Source: a virus (lineage: Duplodnaviria > Heunggongvirae > Uroviricota > Caudoviricetes). From it: DNA of 10,189 nt. Below are positions 2,322 to 10,189 of the stretch, in pieces. A program made the translations under genes and the position numbers. The DNA lies in IMG/VR virus record IMGVR_UViG_2541047699_000011; one strand, written 5' to 3'. Each line of letters opens with the position of its first letter. Within the stretch, counting starts at the first letter, position 1. The notes beneath the pieces were generated by a model that made no database searches, was not told the origin of the DNA, and saw nothing but the letters and a program-made list of their open reading frames with translations.

Positions 2322-2458
2322 TATGCAATTGTTTACTAAAAGTTATTAAAAATGGGGCGTGGAAACGCCCCCAAAATAAAGGGTAATATATAACAGAAGG
2401 TTTATATAGTAAGAAGCAAGGTAGTGCTTCTAAAGGAAGTGGCTTGAGGGCTCCACTT
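2322..2458 (+). promoter_or_regulatory. candidate late promoter (pR'-like) and Q-utilisation leader
   Basis: Position directly after Q and before a strong terminator mirrors the lambda pR'-qut-tR' layout; AT-rich with TTGTTT/TATTAA-like hexamers, but no convincing -35/-10 pair with 17-bp spacing could be fixed by eye. Confidence 0.25.
2352..2376 (-). terminator. candidate intrinsic terminator downstream of nmpC
   Basis: Perfect hairpin GGGGCG-TGGAAA-CGCCCC; on the - strand it is followed by ATTTTTAATAACTTTT. It lies ~135 nt beyond the nmpC stop, so assignment is tentative. Confidence 0.3.
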
Positions 2459-2502
2459 ATATGTTGCGGAGGCAAAGCCTCCCGCAACATATCTTTTTCG
2501 TA
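2459..2502 (+). terminator. rho-independent terminator (tR'-like, end of a short late leader RNA)
   Basis: ~15-bp near-perfect stem ATATGTTGCGGAGGC / GCCTCCCGCAACATAT with an AAA loop, followed by CTTTTTCG on the + strand. Confidence 0.55.
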
Positions 2503-2509
2503 AGTCAGA

Positions 2510-3592
2510 TTAGAACTGATAAACCAGACCTACAGCGACGATGTCGTCGGTATCAATACCAGCTGTTTTGGTAAACTTACTATCGTCAATTAAGTTGATT
2601 TTGTAATCAACAAAAGTGGACATGTTTTTATTAAAGTAGTAAGTAGCACCGACATCGACATACTTGACTAAGTCTCGGTCACCATGAACACCAAGGTCTT
2701 TACCTTTTGACTGAAGGTAAGCAACAGATGGTCGCAGACCGAAGTCAAACTGATATTGTGCTACTGCTTCAAAGTTTTGTGCTTTGTTTGCAATATGGTT
2801 ATTACCAAAAACGGTCATATTCTGAGTTTCAGAATATGTGGTAGCCAGATAGATATTGTTCGCATCATATTTCAGGCCTGCAGCCCATACTTCCGCATTT
2901 TTGCCGGAGGCATTGAATTTGCTCTTACCATAGGCGACCTGACCGTCAGTGCGATCTGATTTAGCATAGGTTGCACCCACGCCGAATCCTTCATACTCAT
3001 AAGTAGTGGAGAAACCGAAACCATCACCATTGGCTTCAGTTACGTCAGTGCGGTCATTTTTACCCTGATACTGAGCAGCAAAGTTCAGGCCATCGACCAG
3101 ACCAAAGAAGTCGTTGTTACGATAAGTTGCAACACCAGTAGTGCGACCAGTCATGAACACATCTGTTTGGGTCCAGGTATCACCACCGAATTCTGGCAGG
3201 ACGTCAGTCCACGCACCGATGTCGTATGCTACACCGTAGTTACGGCCGTAATCGATTGAGCCGTAATCACCAAATTTCAGGCCTGCAAATGCAAGACGGG
3301 TTTTGTCTTTGGAAGAACCTTGAGATTCAGCACGGTTGCCTTTGAATTCATATTCCCACTGACCGAAACCAGTCAGTTGATCGTTGATTTGGGTTTCACC
3401 TTTGAAGCCAAGACGGGCATAAGTAGTATCACCATCATCTGCATCATTAGAGGAGAAGTAGTGCTTGGCATTAACTTTCCCGTATAGATCCAGCTTGTTA
3501 CTGTCTTTATTATAAATTTCAGCTGCCTGAGCAGACATCGCCATCAGTACTGATGCAGCTACAGCAGAAATTGCCACTGTTAATTTTTTCAT
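2510..3592 (-). CDS. nmpC: outer-membrane general porin, OmpC/OmpD/NmpC family, 360 aa precursor
   Basis: Signal peptide [23 protein letters not shown]|AEIYNKD, porin hallmark LYGKV...GFKGETQ, and C-terminal ...VGLVYQF ending in Phe; uninterrupted ORF. Confidence 0.9.
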
Positions 3593-4018
3593 TGTACGCC
3601 CTTTTTTTTGAACTATTATTAAAAAATGATGTCACTGCGCGATAAATATTCATCTAATCAATGCGATTATTTCAAGATGTAAGTTTTAGTTTCTCATTTA
3701 ATTTGTGAAGTAGATCTCTATTTTTATCTGAACCTTTTCTATCTAATCCTATTCATGGCTCTTGTTTGAACGAAAATAAATCTATTAGCTAATTTATATT
3801 AATGGCACTTATTTATAAGCGCTCTATAATTCTTTAACTTAATTTAAACAAACTAAAAATAACATCGGAAATTATTCATTGGTTATTTGTTGAAGTTTTC
3901 TTATGTATTTGTGGTGGTGTTTTGAACACTCGGTGGCATTCTCACAAATATCATTTAGTAGTTTACGTACGTAAAAAATTGGTTATGCTGTTAAGAGTGG
4001 TTACTTCGTCACACAGCT

Positions 4019-4050
4019 TAAACCCGCCGTCGAGCGGGTTTTTCCATTTT
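4019..4050 (+). terminator. rho-independent terminator-like hairpin upstream of the holin gene
   Basis: AACCCGC-CGTCGA-GCGGGTT stem-loop followed by TTTCCATTTTTT. Confidence 0.4.
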
Positions 4051-4181
4051 TTGAGTCTCGATATTAGCTGATAACCCAATACCTGAGTTATTCACTGACT
4101 CCGAATCTGTTACGTTTCTGCCTTTATTGCGATACGTAGTATCCCCTTAATTTACACCCGCTTTGTCTGCGAGGTGGGGTT

Positions 4182-4397
4182 ATGAAATCCATGGATAAGT
4201 TAACAACGGGTGTCGCCTATGGCACCTCAGCAGGTAGTGCCGGGTACTGGTTTTTACAGTTGCTCGATAAAGTCACGCCCTCACAGTGGGCGGCAATAGG
4301 TGTGCTGGGTAGTCTGGTATTTGGCTTGCTGACGTATCTGACAAACCTTTATTTCAAGATTAAAGAAGATAAGCGTAAGGCTGCGAGAGGTGAATAA
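4182..4397 (+). CDS. essD: class II pinholin (phage-21 S type), 71 aa, dual-start motif
   Basis: [26 protein letters not shown]...[17 protein letters not shown] has two TMDs and a charged C-terminus [13 protein letters not shown]; Met1/Met4 dual start; GAGGTGGGG RBS; stop overlaps the next ATG (TAATG), as in S21-R21. Confidence 0.9.
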
Positions 4398-7300
4398 TGT
4401 CGCCATCATTACGCAAGGCTATTGCTGCTGCTATTGGTGGTGGGGCTGTTGCCATAGCGTCTGTGCTCATCACTGGTCCGAGTGGTGACGATGGCCTGGA
4501 AGGTGTCAGCTACATACCATACAAAGATATTGTTGGTGTATGGACTGTATGTCACGGGCATACAGGAAAAGACATCATGCTCGGTAAAACGTATAAAGGC
4601 AGCAGTAAGGGGCATACCCCGCGCGAAGCGAAGGACAACCTGAAATCCACGCAGTTACTGAGTGTGATCGATGCCATCAGCGAAGGGCCGATTGAAGGTC
4701 CGGTGGATGGGTTAAAAAGCGTGCTACTGAACAGTACGCCGGTGCTGGACACTGAGGGGAATACCAATATCTCCGGTGTCACGGTGGTGTTCCGGGCAGG
4801 TGAGCAGGAGCAGACTCCGCCGGAGGGGTTTGAATCCTCCGGCTCCGAGACGGTGCTGGGTACGGAAGTGAAATACGACACGCCGATCACCCGCACCATC
4901 ACGTCGGCAAACATCGACCGTCTGCGTTTTACCTTCGGTGTGCAGGCACTGGTGGAAACCACTTCAAAGGGTGACCGGAATCCGTCGGAAGTTCGCCTGC
5001 TGGTTCAGATACAGCGTAACGGTGGCTGGGTGACGGAAAAAGACATCACCATTAAGGGCAAAACCACCTCGCAGTATCTGGCCTCGGTGGTGGTGGATAA
5101 CCTGCCTCCGCGCCCGTTCAATATCCGGATGCGCAGGATGACACCGGACAGCACCACAGACCAGCTGCAGAACAAAACGCTCTGGTCGTCATACACCGAA
5201 ATCATCGATATGAAACAGTGCTACCCGAACACGGCACTGGTCGGTGTGCAGGTGGACTCGGAGCAGTTCGGCAGTCAGCAGGTGAGTCGTAATTATCATC
5301 TGCGCGGGCGCATTCTGCAGGTGCCGTCGAACTATAACCCGCAGACGCGACAATACAGCGGTATCTGGGACGGAACGTTAAAACCGGCATACAGCAACAA
5401 CATGGCCTGGTGTCTGTGGGATATGCTGACCCATCCGCGCTACGGCATGGGGAAACGTCTTGGTGCGGCGGATGTGGACAAATGGGCGCTGTATGTCATC
5501 GGCCAGAATTGCGACCAGTCGGTGCCGGATGGTTTTGGTGGCACGGAGCCGCGCATCACCTGTAATGCCTGGCTGACCACACAGCGTAAGGCGTGGGATG
5601 TTCTCAGTGATTTCTGCTCGGCGATGCGCTGTATGCCGGTATGGAACGGGCAGACGCTGACGTTCGTGCAGGACCGGCCGTCGGATAAGGTGTGGACCTA
5701 TAACCGCAGTAATGTGGTGATGCCGGATGATGGCGCGCCGTTCCGCTACAGTTTCAGCGCCCTGAAGGACCGCCATAATGCCGTTGAGGTGAACTGGATT
5801 GACCCGGATAACGGCTGGGAGACGGCGACAGAGCTTGTGGAGGACACGCAGGCCATTGCCCGTTACGGTCGTAACGTCACGAAGATGGATGCCTTTGGCT
5901 GTACCAGTCGGGGGCAGGCACACCGAGCCGGGCTGTGGCTGATTAAAACGGAACTGCTGGAAACGCAGACCGTGGATTTCAGCGTGGGCGCAGAAGGGCT
6001 TCGCCATGTGCCGGGCGATGTTATTGAAATCTGCGATGATGACTATGCGGGTATCAGCATCGGCGGGCGCGTGCTGGCGGTGAACAGCCAGACCCGGACG
6101 CTGACGCTCGACCGTGAAATCACTCTGCCATCCTCCGGTACCACGCTGATAAGCCTGGTTGACGGAAGCGGCAATCCGGTCAGCGTGGAGGTCCAGTCCG
6201 TCACCGACGGCGTGAAGGTAAAAGTGAGCCGGGTTCCTGACGGCGTTGCCGGATACAGCGTGTGGGGGCTGAAGTTGCCGACGTTGCGCCAGCGCCTGTT
6301 CCGCTGCGTGAGTATCCGTGAGAACGATGACGGCACGTATGCCATCACTGCCGTGCAGCATGTACCGGAAAAAGAGGCCATCGTGGATAACGGGGCGCAC
6401 TTTGACGGCGACCAGAGCGGCACGGTGAATGGTGTCACGCCGCCAGCGGTGCAGCACCTGACTGCCGAAGTCACCGCAGACAGCGGGGAATATCAGGTGC
6501 TGGCGCGCTGGGACACGCCGAAGGTGGTGAAGGGGGTGAGCTTTATGCTTCGCCTGACCGTGGCAGCGGATGACGGCAGTGAGCGGCTGGTCAGCACGGC
6601 CCGGACGACGGAAACCACATACCGCTTCACGCAACTGGCGCTGGGGCGGTACACGCTGACAGTCCGGGCGGTAAATGCGTGGGGGCAGCAGGGCGATCCG
6701 GCGTCGGTATCGTTCCGGATTGCCGCACCGGCAGCACCGTCGAGGATTGATCTGACGCCGGGCTATTTTCAGATAACCGCCACGCCGCATCTTGCCGTTT
6801 ATGACCCGACGGTACAGTTTGAATTCTGGTTCTCGGAAAAGCGGATTACCGATATCAGGCAGGTTGAAACCACAGCCCGCTATCTTGGCACGGCGCTGTA
6901 CTGGATAGCTGCCAGTATCAATATTAAGCCGGGCCATGATTATTATTTTTATATCCGCAGTGTGAATACTGTTGGCAAATCGGCATTCGTGGAGGCTGTC
7001 GGTCAGGCGAGCGATGATGCTTCCGGCTATCTGGATTTTTTCAAAGGCCAGATAACTGAATCCCATCTCGGCAAGGAGCTGCTGGAAAAAGTCGAGCTGA
7101 CGGAGGATAACGCCAGCAAACTGGAGGAGTTTTCGAAAGAGTGGAAAGACGCCAACGATAAATGGAATGCCATGTGGGGCGTCAAAATTGAGCAGACCGA
7201 AGACGGCAGGCATTATGTCGCGGGTATTGGCCTCAGCATGGAGGATACGGAGGAAGGCAAACTGAGCCAGTTCCTGGTTGCCGCTAACCGTATCGCGTTT

Positions 7301-7987
7301 ATTGACCCGGCAAACGGGAATGAAACGCCGATGTTTGTGGCGCAGGGCAACCAGATATTCATGAACGAAGTGTTCCTGAAGTATCTGACGGCTCCCACCA
7401 TTACCAGCGGCGGCAATCCGCCGGTATTTTCCCTGACACCGGACGGGCGGTTGACGGCGAAAAATGCCGATATCAGCGGTAACGTGAATGCGAACTCAGG
7501 GACGCTCAATAATGTCACGATTAACCAGAACTGTCGGATTCTGGGAAAACTGTCTGCCAACCAGATTGAAGGTGATATTGTCAAAACGGTGGGAAAAGCC
7601 TTTCCGAGAAATGGCAGTTATGCCAGCGGTACAATAACGGTCACTGTGTACGATGACCAGGCTTTTGACCGTCAGATAGTAATCCCACCCGTTCTGTTTC
7701 GCGGTGGTAAGCATGAAAACTTCAACAGCAACAACCAACAGTCATACTGGTATTCAACCTGTAAGCTGCAGGTACTGAAGAACGGACAGGAAATCTTTCA
7801 GCAACCCGCGACGGATGTCAGCAGGGTATTTTCATCCGTCATTGATATGCCAGCGGGACACGGCCATGTCACCCTGACTTTCAATGTTTCTTCATATGGT
7901 GCAAATAACTGGACGCCAACGACCAGTATCAGCGACCTTCTTGTTGTCGTGATGAAGAAATCAACAGCCGGTATCAGTATCAGTTGA
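4397..7987 (+). CDS. chimeric ORF: SAR-endolysin N-terminus (~66 aa, RrrD/R21-like signal-anchor) fused in frame to a lambda-J-type tail-tip host-specificity protein (~1130 aa)
   Basis: Residues 1-66, [66 protein letters not shown], match the phage-21 R / DLP12 RrrD N-terminus. From residue 67, [39 protein letters not shown]... follows lambda J from its third codon for more than 1100 residues. One uninterrupted frame. Confidence 0.85.
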
Positions 7988-8034: not shown

Positions 8035-8045
8035 GTGGAGTGAAT

Positions 8046-9356
8046 ATGGCAGTACAGATTTCAGGCGTGCTGAAAGACGGTGCAGGAAAACCAATACAGA
8101 ACTGTACTATTCAGCTCAAAGCAAAGCGTAACAGCACCACGGTACTGGTGAACACGGTGGCCTCTGAAAATCCGGATGAAGCCGGGCGTTACAGCATGGA
8201 TGTTGAGTATGGCCAGTACAGCGTCACCCTGCTGGTTGAAGGTTTTCCGCCTTCACATGCCGGGACCATTACCGTCTATGAAGGTTCCAGACCAGGTACG
8301 CTGAATGATTTTCTCGGTGCCATGACGGAAGATGATGTCATGCCGGAGGCATTGCGTCGTTTTGAGGTAATGGTGGAGGATGTGGCACGCAACGCTGAAG
8401 CCGCCTCTCAGAGCGCAGCGGCAGCAAAGAAATCAGAAACAGCAGCGGCATCGTCCAGGAACGCGGCGAAAACATCAGAGACGAATGCAGGTAACAGCGC
8501 GAAAGCGGCAGCTTCTTCAAAAACAGCCGCACAAAACGCAGCAACAGCGGCAGAACGTTCAGAGACAAATGCCCGTGCGTCAGAAGAAGCCTCCGCAGAC
8601 AGTGAAGAGGCTTCCCGCCGTAATGCAGAGTCAGCCGCTGAAAATGCCGGAGTCGCCACCACAAAAGCGCGGGAGGCTGCAGCAGACGCAACAAAGGCCG
8701 GGCAGAAAAAGGATGAGGCTCTGTCGGCAGCGACACGAGCTGAAAAGGCGGCAGACCGCGCAGAAGCCGCAGCGGAAGTGACTGCAGAGCCCTATGCGAA
8801 TATAGTGCCGCCGCTGCCTGATGTGTGGATACCGTTTAACGATTCACTGGATATGATTGCGGGTTTTTCTCCGGGCTATAAAAAAATAGCTATTGGTGAC
8901 GATGTGGTTCAGGTCGCCAGTGATAAACAGGTTAATTTCAGTCGCGCATCAACGGCAACATATATCAACAAATCTGGCGAACTGAAAACGGCGGAAATTA
9001 ATGAGCCGCGATTTGAGTGTGATGGCCTGCTTATTGAGGGACAAAGAACGAACTACATGCTCAATTCGGAAAGTCCAGCCAGCTGGGGGAAGTCATCAAA
9101 CATGGATGTGCCCGAAACCGGGACGGATAGTTTTGGTTTTACTTATGGAAAGTTTGTCTGCAACGATTCTCTGGTTGGGCAAACTTCGGCTATTAATATG
9201 GCATCAATTGCTGCAACAAAGTCAGTTGATGTCTCAGGCGATAACAAGTACGTGACAACCTCATGCCGTTTTAAAACAGAACGACAGGTAAGGTTACGTA
9301 TACGGTTTGATAAGTATGATGGTAGTGCAACAACTTTTCTTGGCGATGCGTACTGA
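8046..9356 (+). CDS. stf: side tail fibre protein (Stf-like), N-terminal ~436 aa, 3' end truncated by an IS insertion
   Basis: ATG at 8046 with GGAG 5 nt upstream; MAVQISGVLKDGAGKPIQNCTIQLKAKRNSTTV...GRYSMDVEYGQYSVTL matches the lambda Stf N-terminus, followed by an Ala/Ser/Glu-rich repetitive shaft; the stop TGA (9354-9356) is the first three bases of the IS end. Confidence 0.75.
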   Translation: MAVQISGVLKDGAGKPIQNCTIQLKAKRNSTTVLVNTVASENPDEAGRYSMDVEYGQYSVTLLVEGFPPSHAGTITVYEGSRPGTLNDFLGAMTEDDVMPEALRRFEVMVEDVARNAEAASQSAAAAKKSETAAASSRNAAKTSETNAGNSAKAAASSKTAAQNAATAAERSETNARASEEASADSEEASRRNAESAAENAGVATTKAREAAADATKAGQKKDEALSAATRAEKAADRAEAAAEVTAEPYANIVPPLPDVWIPFNDSLDMIAGFSPGYKKIAIGDDVVQVASDKQVNFSRASTATYINKSGELKTAEINEPRFECDGLLIEGQRTNYMLNSESPASWGKSSNMDVPETGTDSFGFTYGKFVCNDSLVGQTSAINMASIAATKSVDVSGDNKYVTTSCRFKTERQVRLRIRFDKYDGSATTFLGDAY

Positions 9357-9425
9357 AGTGGTTTACTGAATTTGGCCACCTGAACAGAGGTGATATGCTC
9401 ACCTCAGAACAACACAGGTGCCATA

Positions 9426-10189
<764 letters not shown>

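Follow-up and report, generated by a model that had tools for sequence, protein, structure and literature searches.

The porin gene lying between the Q antiterminator and the holin is an intact allele of the classical and already known NmpC/Lc porin moron of DLP12/PA-2-type lambdoid prophages, and it is very probably a self-contained unit in a slot between Q and the late promoter pR', divergent from the late operon and not crossed by Q-modified polymerase. The window we analysed is a stretch of 10,189 nucleotides (IMG/VR record IMGVR_UViG_2541047699_000011) in which the gap of interest, 2322–4181, runs exactly from the Q stop codon (2321) to the holin start (4182).

The porin CDS is the single long ORF of this gap. 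Residues 29–360 match the whole of the Pfam Porin_1 model (PF00267, 1–337 of 337, E = 1.9e-151, 504.7 bits with a cutoff of 23.7) and residues 24–360 align with the mature OmpC structure 2xe2 from end to end (residues 1–343 of 343, E = 6e-137), the 16-strand barrel being complete relative to the solved structure. A signal peptide is encoded by 3524–3592 (leader MKK...AQA/AE, mature start AEIYNK), the PEFGG L3 motif of the constriction loop is kept, the C-terminus reads ...VGLVYQF with Phe as the final residue, and no frameshift or premature stop was found in the ORF at 2510–3592. An intact, full-length porin between Q and holin is far beyond chance, and the sequence-only reading, which had described a complete OmpC-family gene on the minus strand with Q and holin as its neighbours, is borne out on both counts (the holin belongs to the P21 holin S family; see Table 1 for the Pfam matches of Q and the holin). 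Judged by its sequence, the protein is a general bacterial porin of the Porin_1 family and of the OmpC/OmpF/PhoE type, and the ~60% similarity to OmpC structures suggests that it would form a trimeric outer-membrane diffusion channel.

Table 1. Features in and around the gap between Q and the holin (window coordinates).
Feature	Position	Strand	Basis
Q antiterminator gene, QuuD type, 127 aa	1938..2321	+	PF06530, E = 9e-54; RefSeq quuD in identical genomes
Structured 188-bp spacer between Q and porin	2322..2509	.	Terminator scan, fold z-scores
Porin CDS, NmpC/Lc type, 360 aa	2510..3592	-	Pfam match, OmpC structure alignment, NmpC/Lc identity
Predicted sigmaE-type promoter 'essDp'	3610..3642	+	GAACTA 3610–3615, N16, TCACT 3632–3636, +1 at A3642
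Porin upstream regulatory region	3593..3791	-	AT-rich (27–34% GC), CRP-like site TGTGAAGTAGATCTCT at 3704–3719
Candidate 933W-type late promoter pR'	3962..3989	+	-35 TTTACG 3962–3967, 16-nt spacer, -10 TATGCT 3984–3989
Conserved late leader, candidate tR'	3990..4051	+	Initial transcribed region (TAAGAGTGGTTACTTCGTCACACAG), hairpin 4020–4041, T-run
Holin/antiholin essD, S21 (pinholin) type, first gene of the late operon	4182..4397	+	PF04971, E = 2e-35; essD annotation in identical genomes
Endolysin N-terminus (codons 1–66) fused in frame to lambda-J-type tail tip protein	4397..7987	+	Pfam, DNA match

The chromosomal porins OmpC, OmpF and PhoE and the Klebsiella proteins OmpK36 and OmpK37 belong to the same fold family, and the full-length structure alignment, the PEFGG motif and the C-terminal Phe are common to them and the window porin. 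The window porin differs from them in its promoter region, which is AT-rich and contains a CRP-like site, and in being prophage-borne rather than part of the core-genome ompC locus. This is despite the PGAP label 'porin OmpC' given to the same CDS in the RefSeq entry for strain M1/5 (9611–10693, WP_000737271.1), a label which hides an extra, prophage-borne porin beside the lysis cassette.

Membership of the NmpC/Lc group is indicated by the position of the gene, which has a QuuD-type Q on one side and an S21-type holin on the other and is encoded on the opposite strand to both, and by close identity which includes the upstream region. The protein shares 90.7% identity with the reconstructed K-12 NmpC and also with PA-2 Lc; the first 180 residues are identical to NmpC at 178 positions and the differences cluster in the C-terminal half, in blocks which by their position are probably surface loops L4–L8. 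The K-12 prophage DLP12 has the same gene order (ybcN–ninE–ybcO–rusA–ylcG–quuD, then nmpC on the opposite strand, then essD) with 95% identity in the flank on the Q side and 88–95% on the holin side. However, in MG1655 an IS5B insertion after codon 346, with a CTAA target duplication, splits nmpC (b0553) and makes it a pseudogene, and the K-12 product as it stands is without the last beta-strand and the C-terminal Phe, whereas the window porin is intact; the earlier reading had named the IS5 disruption of the K-12 copy and our comparison agrees with it. DLP12 also keeps rrrD and rzpD/rzoD, while the lysis cassette of the window has been destroyed by an R'–J deletion fusion. In phage PA-2, lc (GenBank J02580) has the same placement and orientation relative to the lysis genes and shares its upstream region with the window, including CRP sites annotated in the PA-2 record; DNA identity is 89% over 2.1 kb. 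PA-2 itself is viable, and the Lc allele that it carries resembles that of K-12 (98.9% identical to K-12 NmpC).

The same earlier reading had placed the porin where lambdoid phages carry the late leader, and this is not supported, as the leader is found at 3962–4051 towards the holin. The window Q shares 95% identity with K-12 QuuD and 76% with the VT2-Sakai/933W Q, and is distantly similar to the Q21 structures 6p18/6jnx (E = 3e-8). DNA homology to VT2-Sakai covers Q at 1936–2270, where it ends and the C-terminal tail of Q therefore differs, and then only 3959–4043, which is annotated in Sakai as promoter, qut and terminator; no other part of the Q–S gap is homologous to the pR'/qut/terminator region of VT2-Sakai and SC370. 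The gap in homology between Q and leader is 86 bp in Sakai compared with 1688 bp in the window. The candidate pR' aligns column for column with the VT2-Sakai 'putative late promoter' (L005 1504–1531) and the SC370 pR', is single-copy in the window and was also found by a relaxed hexamer scan, with transcription expected to start near 3996. The last Q933 codons overlap pR' in VT2-Sakai, and a relic of these codons (SLRS and stop) can be read in the window at 3959–3975 as AGT TTA CGT ACG TAA.

The leader block is near-invariant in the window, K-12, PA-2, VT2-Sakai, SC370, Stx2a_1447 and SfII with unrelated flanks on either side, and the window and K-12 are 100% identical over 3959–4100 while their flanks diverge; identity to the Stx-phage pR' block is only 77–89% over 85 nt. 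The hairpin at 4020–4041 was picked up by the terminator scan and is present in the centroid fold. An exact match to the leader motif occurs once in the window, and in IMG/VR the motif is always downstream of a Q of the QuuD/Q933 family. A Rfam scan of the whole window produced no match at E ≤ 1, and the leader is therefore not a curated RNA family. The promoter and terminator calls for the window rest on homology and consensus, and together they point to a Q933/QuuD-type antitermination unit consisting of Q with its cognate promoter, initial transcribed region and terminator upstream of the lysis genes. That Q controls the lysis cassette of DLP12 is cited in PMC7918800.

The Stx phages 933W and VT2-Sakai have a homologous Q, and their -35 and -10 hexamers, spacer length, initial transcribed sequence and first hairpin are homologous as well. 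In these phages pR' overlaps the last Q codons and the cargo (tRNAs and stx) follows the leader and is sense-oriented, whereas in the window ~1.69 kb of antisense cargo separates Q and pR' and a tRNA scan of the window found none, unlike Stx-phage late regions. The Stx-phage PR' start has been mapped by dRNA-seq, 258 nt from tR' (PMC7547250), and transcription there continues past the homologous first hairpin as far as a second terminator 258 nt from the start (PMC7547250), and so the window hairpin at 4020–4041 may be an inefficient terminator. Homology to the 258-nt StxS leader stops at the first hairpin, and the 3' part of that leader is absent in the window.

A second plus-strand promoter, essDp, is located 18 nt from the porin ATG and is directed away from the porin. 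We take essDp at 3610–3642 to be of the sigmaE type, as reportedly assigned by Rueggeberg et al. 2015. Its position was obtained from the K-12 lysis-operon reporter fragment '-121 to +650', which begins within the nmpC codons for the signal peptide and extends to the right into essD (the forward primer maps to window position 3520 and the amplicon is 771 bp, placing +1 near 3642; the reverse primer as printed matches inexactly, with small indels), and the sequence is the same in K-12 except for one T. Published work places the Q-responsive, RpoE-dependent promoter of DLP12 at ~3642 and not at 3962–3989. Both plus-strand promoters (~3642 and 3962–3989) are on the holin side of the porin, as is the leader, and therefore the porin and the late operon are divergent, not convergent. 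Q-modified transcripts crossing the porin in antisense, as had been proposed, are not supported by this arrangement, in which the spacer next to Q has no promoter-like site and the reporter fragment covers only what is to the right of the nmpC signal-peptide codons.

The porin appears to have its own promoter region, although the -10 and -35 hexamers we considered in a relaxed scan were weak candidates whose distance from the CRP-like site agrees with neither a class I nor a class II arrangement, and we did not adopt them. A CRP site is annotated at the equivalent position in PA-2, and the 590 bp upstream of the porin are ~95% identical between the window and K-12, where PnmpC is active and deletion of -199 to -1 abolishes its activity (PMC11677980). 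There is probably an overlap between the 5' UTR of the porin and the sigmaE-type promoter of essD. As a separate observation, the second 'CRP site' of the 1986 PA-2 record coincides with the apparent initial transcribed region of pR'.

At the other end of the gene, the spacer contains a predicted porin terminator on the minus strand (a hairpin at 2371–2354 followed by ATTTTTAATA, from the terminator scan) and a plus-strand hairpin at ~2458–2493 followed by CTTTTTC just before the porin 3' end, and its fold z-scores are -4.0 (plus strand) and -5.8 (minus strand). The promoter scan found no sigma-70-like promoter in 2322–2509, no similarity to any pR' region was found for this segment, and in the phage collection the spacer occurs only in the 36 porin-carrying records. 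We suggest that the porin has been inserted in reverse in an accessory slot between the Q gene and the cognate late promoter of Q, and that it would be transcribed as a unit of its own from the AT-rich promoter region with its CRP-like site to its own terminator, while the hairpins of the 188-bp spacer would insulate it from transcripts leaving Q. Q made from the early transcript would then act in trans on pR'/qut ~1.65 kb downstream of the Q gene, and late transcription, starting either at pR' or at the published sigmaE-type essDp near 3642, would pass the hairpin terminator at 4020–4051 into the holin.

Antisense transcription of the porin might instead come from the early transcripts which encode Q, starting at pR under N antitermination in intact relatives or at a quuD promoter nearby, which would continue beyond the spacer hairpins into the 3' end of the gene and dampen the porin during lytic growth. 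We consider this unlikely, but it is the alternative that survives best, since Q and porin are convergent and only 188 bp apart. N-modified polymerase ignores intrinsic terminators, which favours early read-through into the porin, and the K-12 authors inserted an rrnB terminator in the nmpC/quuD gap, having deemed read-through from PquuD plausible (PMC11677980). However, the long plus-strand hairpin and T-run are found just before the porin 3' end, and in M1/5, a 100%-identical relative, the region upstream of ybcN has been replaced by unrelated genes and IS remnants with no N or pR annotated (the window itself begins ~450 bp upstream of ybcN, where our view of the left side ends). The antisense idea is not supported for Q-modified late transcripts but survives in this weaker form, in which N-modified early transcripts leaving Q could enter the porin in intact relatives.

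The divergent arrangement is widely distributed: many complete E. coli genomes contain the Q–porin–holin segment at 100% identity, and 2395 of 5426 (~44% of complete E. coli genomes) have an uninterrupted stretch covering 80% or more of it. The segment also occurs at 99.9% identity in several 49-kb phage genomes, among them 4A7, Lambda_4C10, 1W and 3W, which makes this layout compatible with a late operon that works. The prophage of the window is itself defective, as shown by the endolysin–J fusion, in which Phage_lysozyme is found at residues 34–83 followed by a complete set of J domains (Pfam), with the K-12 rrrD DNA match stopping at nucleotide 198 of the fusion ORF; RefSeq labels this ORF gpJ, immediately after essD, in identical genomes. 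The R'–J fusion is accompanied by an IS insertion at the right end of the window, where the tail-fibre junction is interrupted.

These signs of decay leave room for a porin ORF which is intact but effectively silent, kept because the prophage remnant is young and making no contribution to the outer membrane. Upstream DNA of 27–34% GC would be typical of horizontally acquired DNA silenced by H-NS, and in laboratory strains nmpC has for many years been regarded as quiescent, which would fit a silent gene. We regard this as slightly less probable again than early read-through, given that the nmpC promoter is active in K-12 (PMC11677980), that two CFT073 genes annotated as nmpC are expressed as RNA and protein, preferentially at 37 °C, and NmpC is highly expressed in strain AW1.7, and that many unrelated isolates share the porin ORF in intact and identical form while adjoining genes have been deleted.

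Our survey of IMG/VR recovered 97 loci in which the leader motif is preceded by a complete Q, counted without de-replication so that the numbers overstate independent events. Q ends 21 or 62 nt from the leader motif in 12 of these, an antisense porin in the window-type layout is found in 54, and the remaining 31 have other cargo in which the longest ORF is antisense in all but one (30/31). The porin is absent from those 12 loci and from VT2-Sakai and SC370 where Q and pR' overlap, in agreement with its earlier description as a moron. Among this other cargo are KwaB (E = 2e-150), PDC-S20, an HNH effector and the ATPase of a gene pair, with the partner ORF of the ATPase resembling, by eye, a Dcm-type methyltransferase.

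This variable content also bears on the weakest alternative, a lambda-like pR' directly after Q (2318–2400) from which Q-modified polymerase would cross the porin in antisense, leaving 3962–4051 as a functionless relic: a TTGATA hexamer does fall on the Q stop codon (2318–2323), the canonical lambdoid place for pR', and the strongly structured spacer ending in a plus-strand hairpin and T-run superficially resembles a promoter–leader–tR' unit, but the hexamer has no acceptable -10 (the best candidates match at 3/6 positions and are without A at position 2), the promoter scan of 2322–2509 is empty and the spacer is unlike any pR' region and occurs only with the porin, the leader of the closest characterised Q (76%) is found at 3962–4043 where it has a single copy and is conserved more strongly than the flanking DNA, the interval from Q to this leader contains quite different cargo, also antisense, in related phages, and the K-12 lysis-operon promoter fragment leaves out the spacer, all of which makes this reading highly improbable. 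A second copy of pR' beside Q was likewise rejected, as the leader is single-copy, the spacer has no promoter and the spacer is tied to the porin.

With pR' on the holin side, the Q/late-promoter junction of Q933/QuuD-type lambdoid phages might more generally be a cargo slot, occupied in antisense in 84 of 85 filled cases by a porin or by defence genes (Kiwa, PDC-S20 KAP NTPase, HNH effector, ATPase pair). The porin would then be kept as an equivalent of defence which protects the lysogen by remodelling receptors, and the reverse orientation and bidirectional hairpins would stop leakage of constitutive transcription from the cargo into the lysis genes. We offer this tentatively, as a proposal for which the balance falls just short of even, and our literature search found nothing specific describing a lambdoid defence hotspot at Q. 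If it is true, the overlap between the porin 5' UTR and essDp could couple porin and lysis-cassette expression under envelope stress.

An intact porin of this type may be produced in the lysogen as a general-diffusion trimer, and from work on Lc, NmpC and CFT073 its likely benefits would be an alternative permeability pathway and altered availability of porin receptors for phages and colicins. That intact NmpC-type porins can affect antibiotic permeability, heat resistance and the availability of phage and colicin receptors is known from the same literature and our analysis adds nothing new to it. Literature searches pairing nmpC with DLP12/antitermination or with PA-2/lambdoid found nothing. 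The placement of the late promoter is the one useful refinement: models in which late transcription interferes with that of the porin are probably incorrect, since in this phage family the late promoter is separated from Q by the cargo, and the focus shifts to the divergent, overlapping promoters of the porin and essD.

The minus-strand ORF between the Q antiterminator gene and the S21-type holin gene is a complete porin: it covers positions 1–337 of the 337 in Pfam Porin_1 (E=1.9e-151), residues 24–360 align end-to-end with mature OmpC structures, and it has a normal signal peptide, a PEFGG motif and a C-terminus ending in VYQF. This bears out the sequence-only reading of an intact OmpC-family porin at this place, although the interval first assigned to it was the entire Q–holin gap and the gene proper is shorter (see the table below). 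The window itself comes from a defective E. coli prophage of the lambdoid, DLP12-like kind, with the same gene order as K-12 DLP12; many complete E. coli chromosomes match the segment 1900–4420 at 100% identity, and in these RefSeq labels the genes quuD, 'porin OmpC' (WP_000737271.1) and essD, and at least 80% of it was found in one piece in 2395 of 5426 genomes. The statement that the K-12 copy is disrupted by IS5 also proved correct: IS5B splits MG1655 nmpC into a pseudogene of two pieces. By our reconstruction the element sits behind codon 346, accompanied by a CTAA duplication, the last strand is lost from the as-is product, and the record of a laboratory phage 434 hybrid agrees on a K-12-type disruption. 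The window porin shares 90.7% identity with both K-12 NmpC and the Lc porin of phage PA-2, with 178 of the first 180 residues matching and nearly all of the differences found in blocks of the C-terminal half.

Features of the window around the porin gene, with coordinates and strand
Feature	Position	Strand	Remarks
ybcN/ninB-like, ninE, ybcO, rusA, ylcG			Left part of the window, in this order, before Q
Q antiterminator, 127 aa	1938–2321	+	
Predicted terminator for the porin	2371–2354	-	In the Q-proximal spacer
Long hairpin, then CTTTTTC		+	In the spacer, just before the porin 3' end
Porin ORF, 360 aa	2510–3592	-	
-35 TTTACG	3962–3967	+	Aligned with Stx-phage late promoter; 16-nt spacer to -10
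-10 TATGCT	3984–3989	+	Aligned with Stx-phage late promoter
Initial transcribed sequence TAAGAGTGGTTACTTCGTCACACAG	After -10	+	Nearly invariant in alignment
GC-rich hairpin, then T-run	4020–4041	+	From alignment
Holin, S21-type	4182–4397	+	
1196-aa ORF, tail-fibre gene, IS3-family element			Right of the holin, in this order

Besides the porin, the Q–holin gap holds a 188-bp spacer next to Q (2322–2509), a 370-bp AT-rich stretch and a 220-bp stretch next to the holin. When the holin-proximal part was searched against phage genomes, homology was found between 3959–4043 and the sequence immediately following Q in 933W-type Stx phages, where depositors have annotated the late promoter, Q-utilisation site and terminator, and the two blocks align column for column. 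The hairpin was also found independently by a terminator scan and is the centroid structure of the leader, and the window has a single copy of the late-promoter and leader motif. For Stx phages, dRNA-seq has located the PR' start (PMC7547250). The window Q is 76% identical to that of VT2-Sakai; DNA homology to Sakai extends only to 2270 in Q and resumes at 3959, so that the two homologous blocks are separated by 86 bp in Sakai and by 1688 bp in the window. In Stx phages such as Sakai, pR' overlaps the final codons of Q (…SLRS*). The window still reads AGT TTA CGT ACG TAA at 3959–3975, apparently what is left of the 3' end and stop of a 933W-type Q. The C-terminal tail of the window's own Q, which stops at 2321, is different and shorter.

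Two details of this leader concern earlier records. The second 'CRP binding site' of the 1986 PA-2 record (J02580, 1730–1750; window 3996–4016) falls on the nearly invariant initial transcribed region of the 933W-type late promoter (GTGGTTACTTCGTCACAC, an imperfect palindrome). It more probably belongs to the Q-utilisation/leader element than serves as a CRP site. Between the hairpin terminator and the holin, 17 bp of leader that the window (4123–4139) and PA-2 both have are missing from K-12 DLP12.

In the published K-12 essD reporter fragment, a 771-bp amplicon ending in essD, the forward primer lies within the codons for the nmpC signal peptide (window 3520). The published +1 thus falls on A3642, behind GAACTA-N16-TCACT, in what we take to be the RpoE-dependent, Q-responsive essDp. 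The two plus-strand promoter candidates, sigmaE-type at 3610–3642 and 933W-type at 3962–3989, are both on the holin side of the porin and are directed away from that gene. A transcript from either must pass the 4020–4051 hairpin to reach the holin, which makes this the natural place for Q action. Either could be the promoter that Q uses, with sequence comparison favouring the 933W-type site. Of all sequences in the Q–holin gap, ATGGCA-N17-TATAAT at 3802–3830 (+) comes closest to the sigma-70 consensus (10/12); it is situated in the AT-rich stretch, ahead of the 933W-type pR', and may be a chance match in such DNA or a third rightward promoter.

The Q-proximal spacer was found only in porin-carrying phages in our phage collection, and is strongly structured (z = -4.0 and -5.8). 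A promoter scan of 2322–2509 found no promoter-like site and the single pR' block is on the holin side, and the suggestion that late transcripts cross the porin in antisense is not supported. If Q is made, late transcription would start on the far side of the porin and run away from it. In the lysogen, the porin would be transcribed leftwards from its own promoter region in the very AT-rich upstream stretch (27–34% GC), ending at the minus-strand terminator. The equivalent K-12 region from -199 to -1, which is 95% identical in the window, drives strong transcription (PMC11677980), and the CRP site annotated in the PA-2 record is kept at 3704–3719. Two genes that carry the annotation nmpC are made as RNA and protein in CFT073, with a preference for 37 C, and strain AW1.7 expresses NmpC at a high level (PMC12890032).

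Two weaker forms of interference could be envisaged. The -35 of essDp is 18 nt from the porin ATG on the opposite strand, so the porin 5' UTR and essDp must overlap; the two promoters could compete or interfere mutually, and co-regulation under envelope stress is possible. In intact relatives, N-modified early transcripts encoding Q might continue beyond the spacer hairpins and enter the porin gene at its 3' end.

In the strain carrying the window the late operon is a stump: in the 1196-aa ORF, the first 66 codons of a SAR endolysin (rrrD-like) are fused in-frame to a lambda-J-type tail tip protein (4397–7987, +; junction near 4595, with the J part beginning at about its third codon), a deletion which took out Rz/Rz1, bor, terminase, head and most tail genes, and the rest of the lysis genes. 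In many E. coli genomes that are otherwise unrelated, the fusion follows essD immediately and is called gpJ by PGAP. The tail-fibre gene (8040–9356) is truncated by the IS3-family element (IS911/ISEc52-like; 9354–10189, left end TGAAGTGG..., OrfA at 9423–9728), and this junction was not found in one piece in any complete E. coli genome of the collection searched.

We scanned IMG/VR for the leader motif and obtained 97 loci with a complete Q upstream, which were not de-replicated, so that counts refer to sequences and not events. In 12 of these the distance between the Q end and the motif is 21 or 62 nt, 54 have an antisense porin in the gap (1672–1691 nt), and the other 31 carry 0.6–3 kb of different cargo, whose longest ORF is antisense in all but one (30/31). 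Examples of cargo-filled gaps among IMG/VR loci L009–L128 are L014 4034–5615, L021 1591–3074, L037 1346–2232 and L111 8968–11927. The different cargo includes Kiwa (KwaA/KwaB; KwaB at E=2e-150, with an adjoining membrane protein), a KAP-type NTPase (PDC-S20, E=1e-177), an HNH effector (PDC-M68A), a HEC-04-like ATPase whose partner ORF resembles, by eye, a Dcm-type methyltransferase, and several two-gene cassettes without a PADLOC hit. The same layout is seen in the annotated records of SfII (829–2443) and Stx2a_1447 (884–2447). These sequences give a clear picture: between Q and pR' lies an accessory slot, the porin is one of the elements that can fill it, and the cargo there is almost always reversed with respect to Q, plausibly because a sense-oriented gene expressed constitutively in the lysogen would push transcription towards the lysis genes.

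The window porin is the real and already known nmpC/lc porin, reportedly described in the 1980s. The PA-2 record is in our phage collection, K-12 nmpC is annotated as a DLP12 pseudogene, and intact alleles are common. Both the essD promoter and the control of the DLP12 lysis cassette by Q have already been published (cited in PMC7918800). The literature searched contained no explicit statement of the split of Q from a 933W-type pR' by cargo or of the orientation bias of the slot, and we regard both as refinements rather than a new kind of system.
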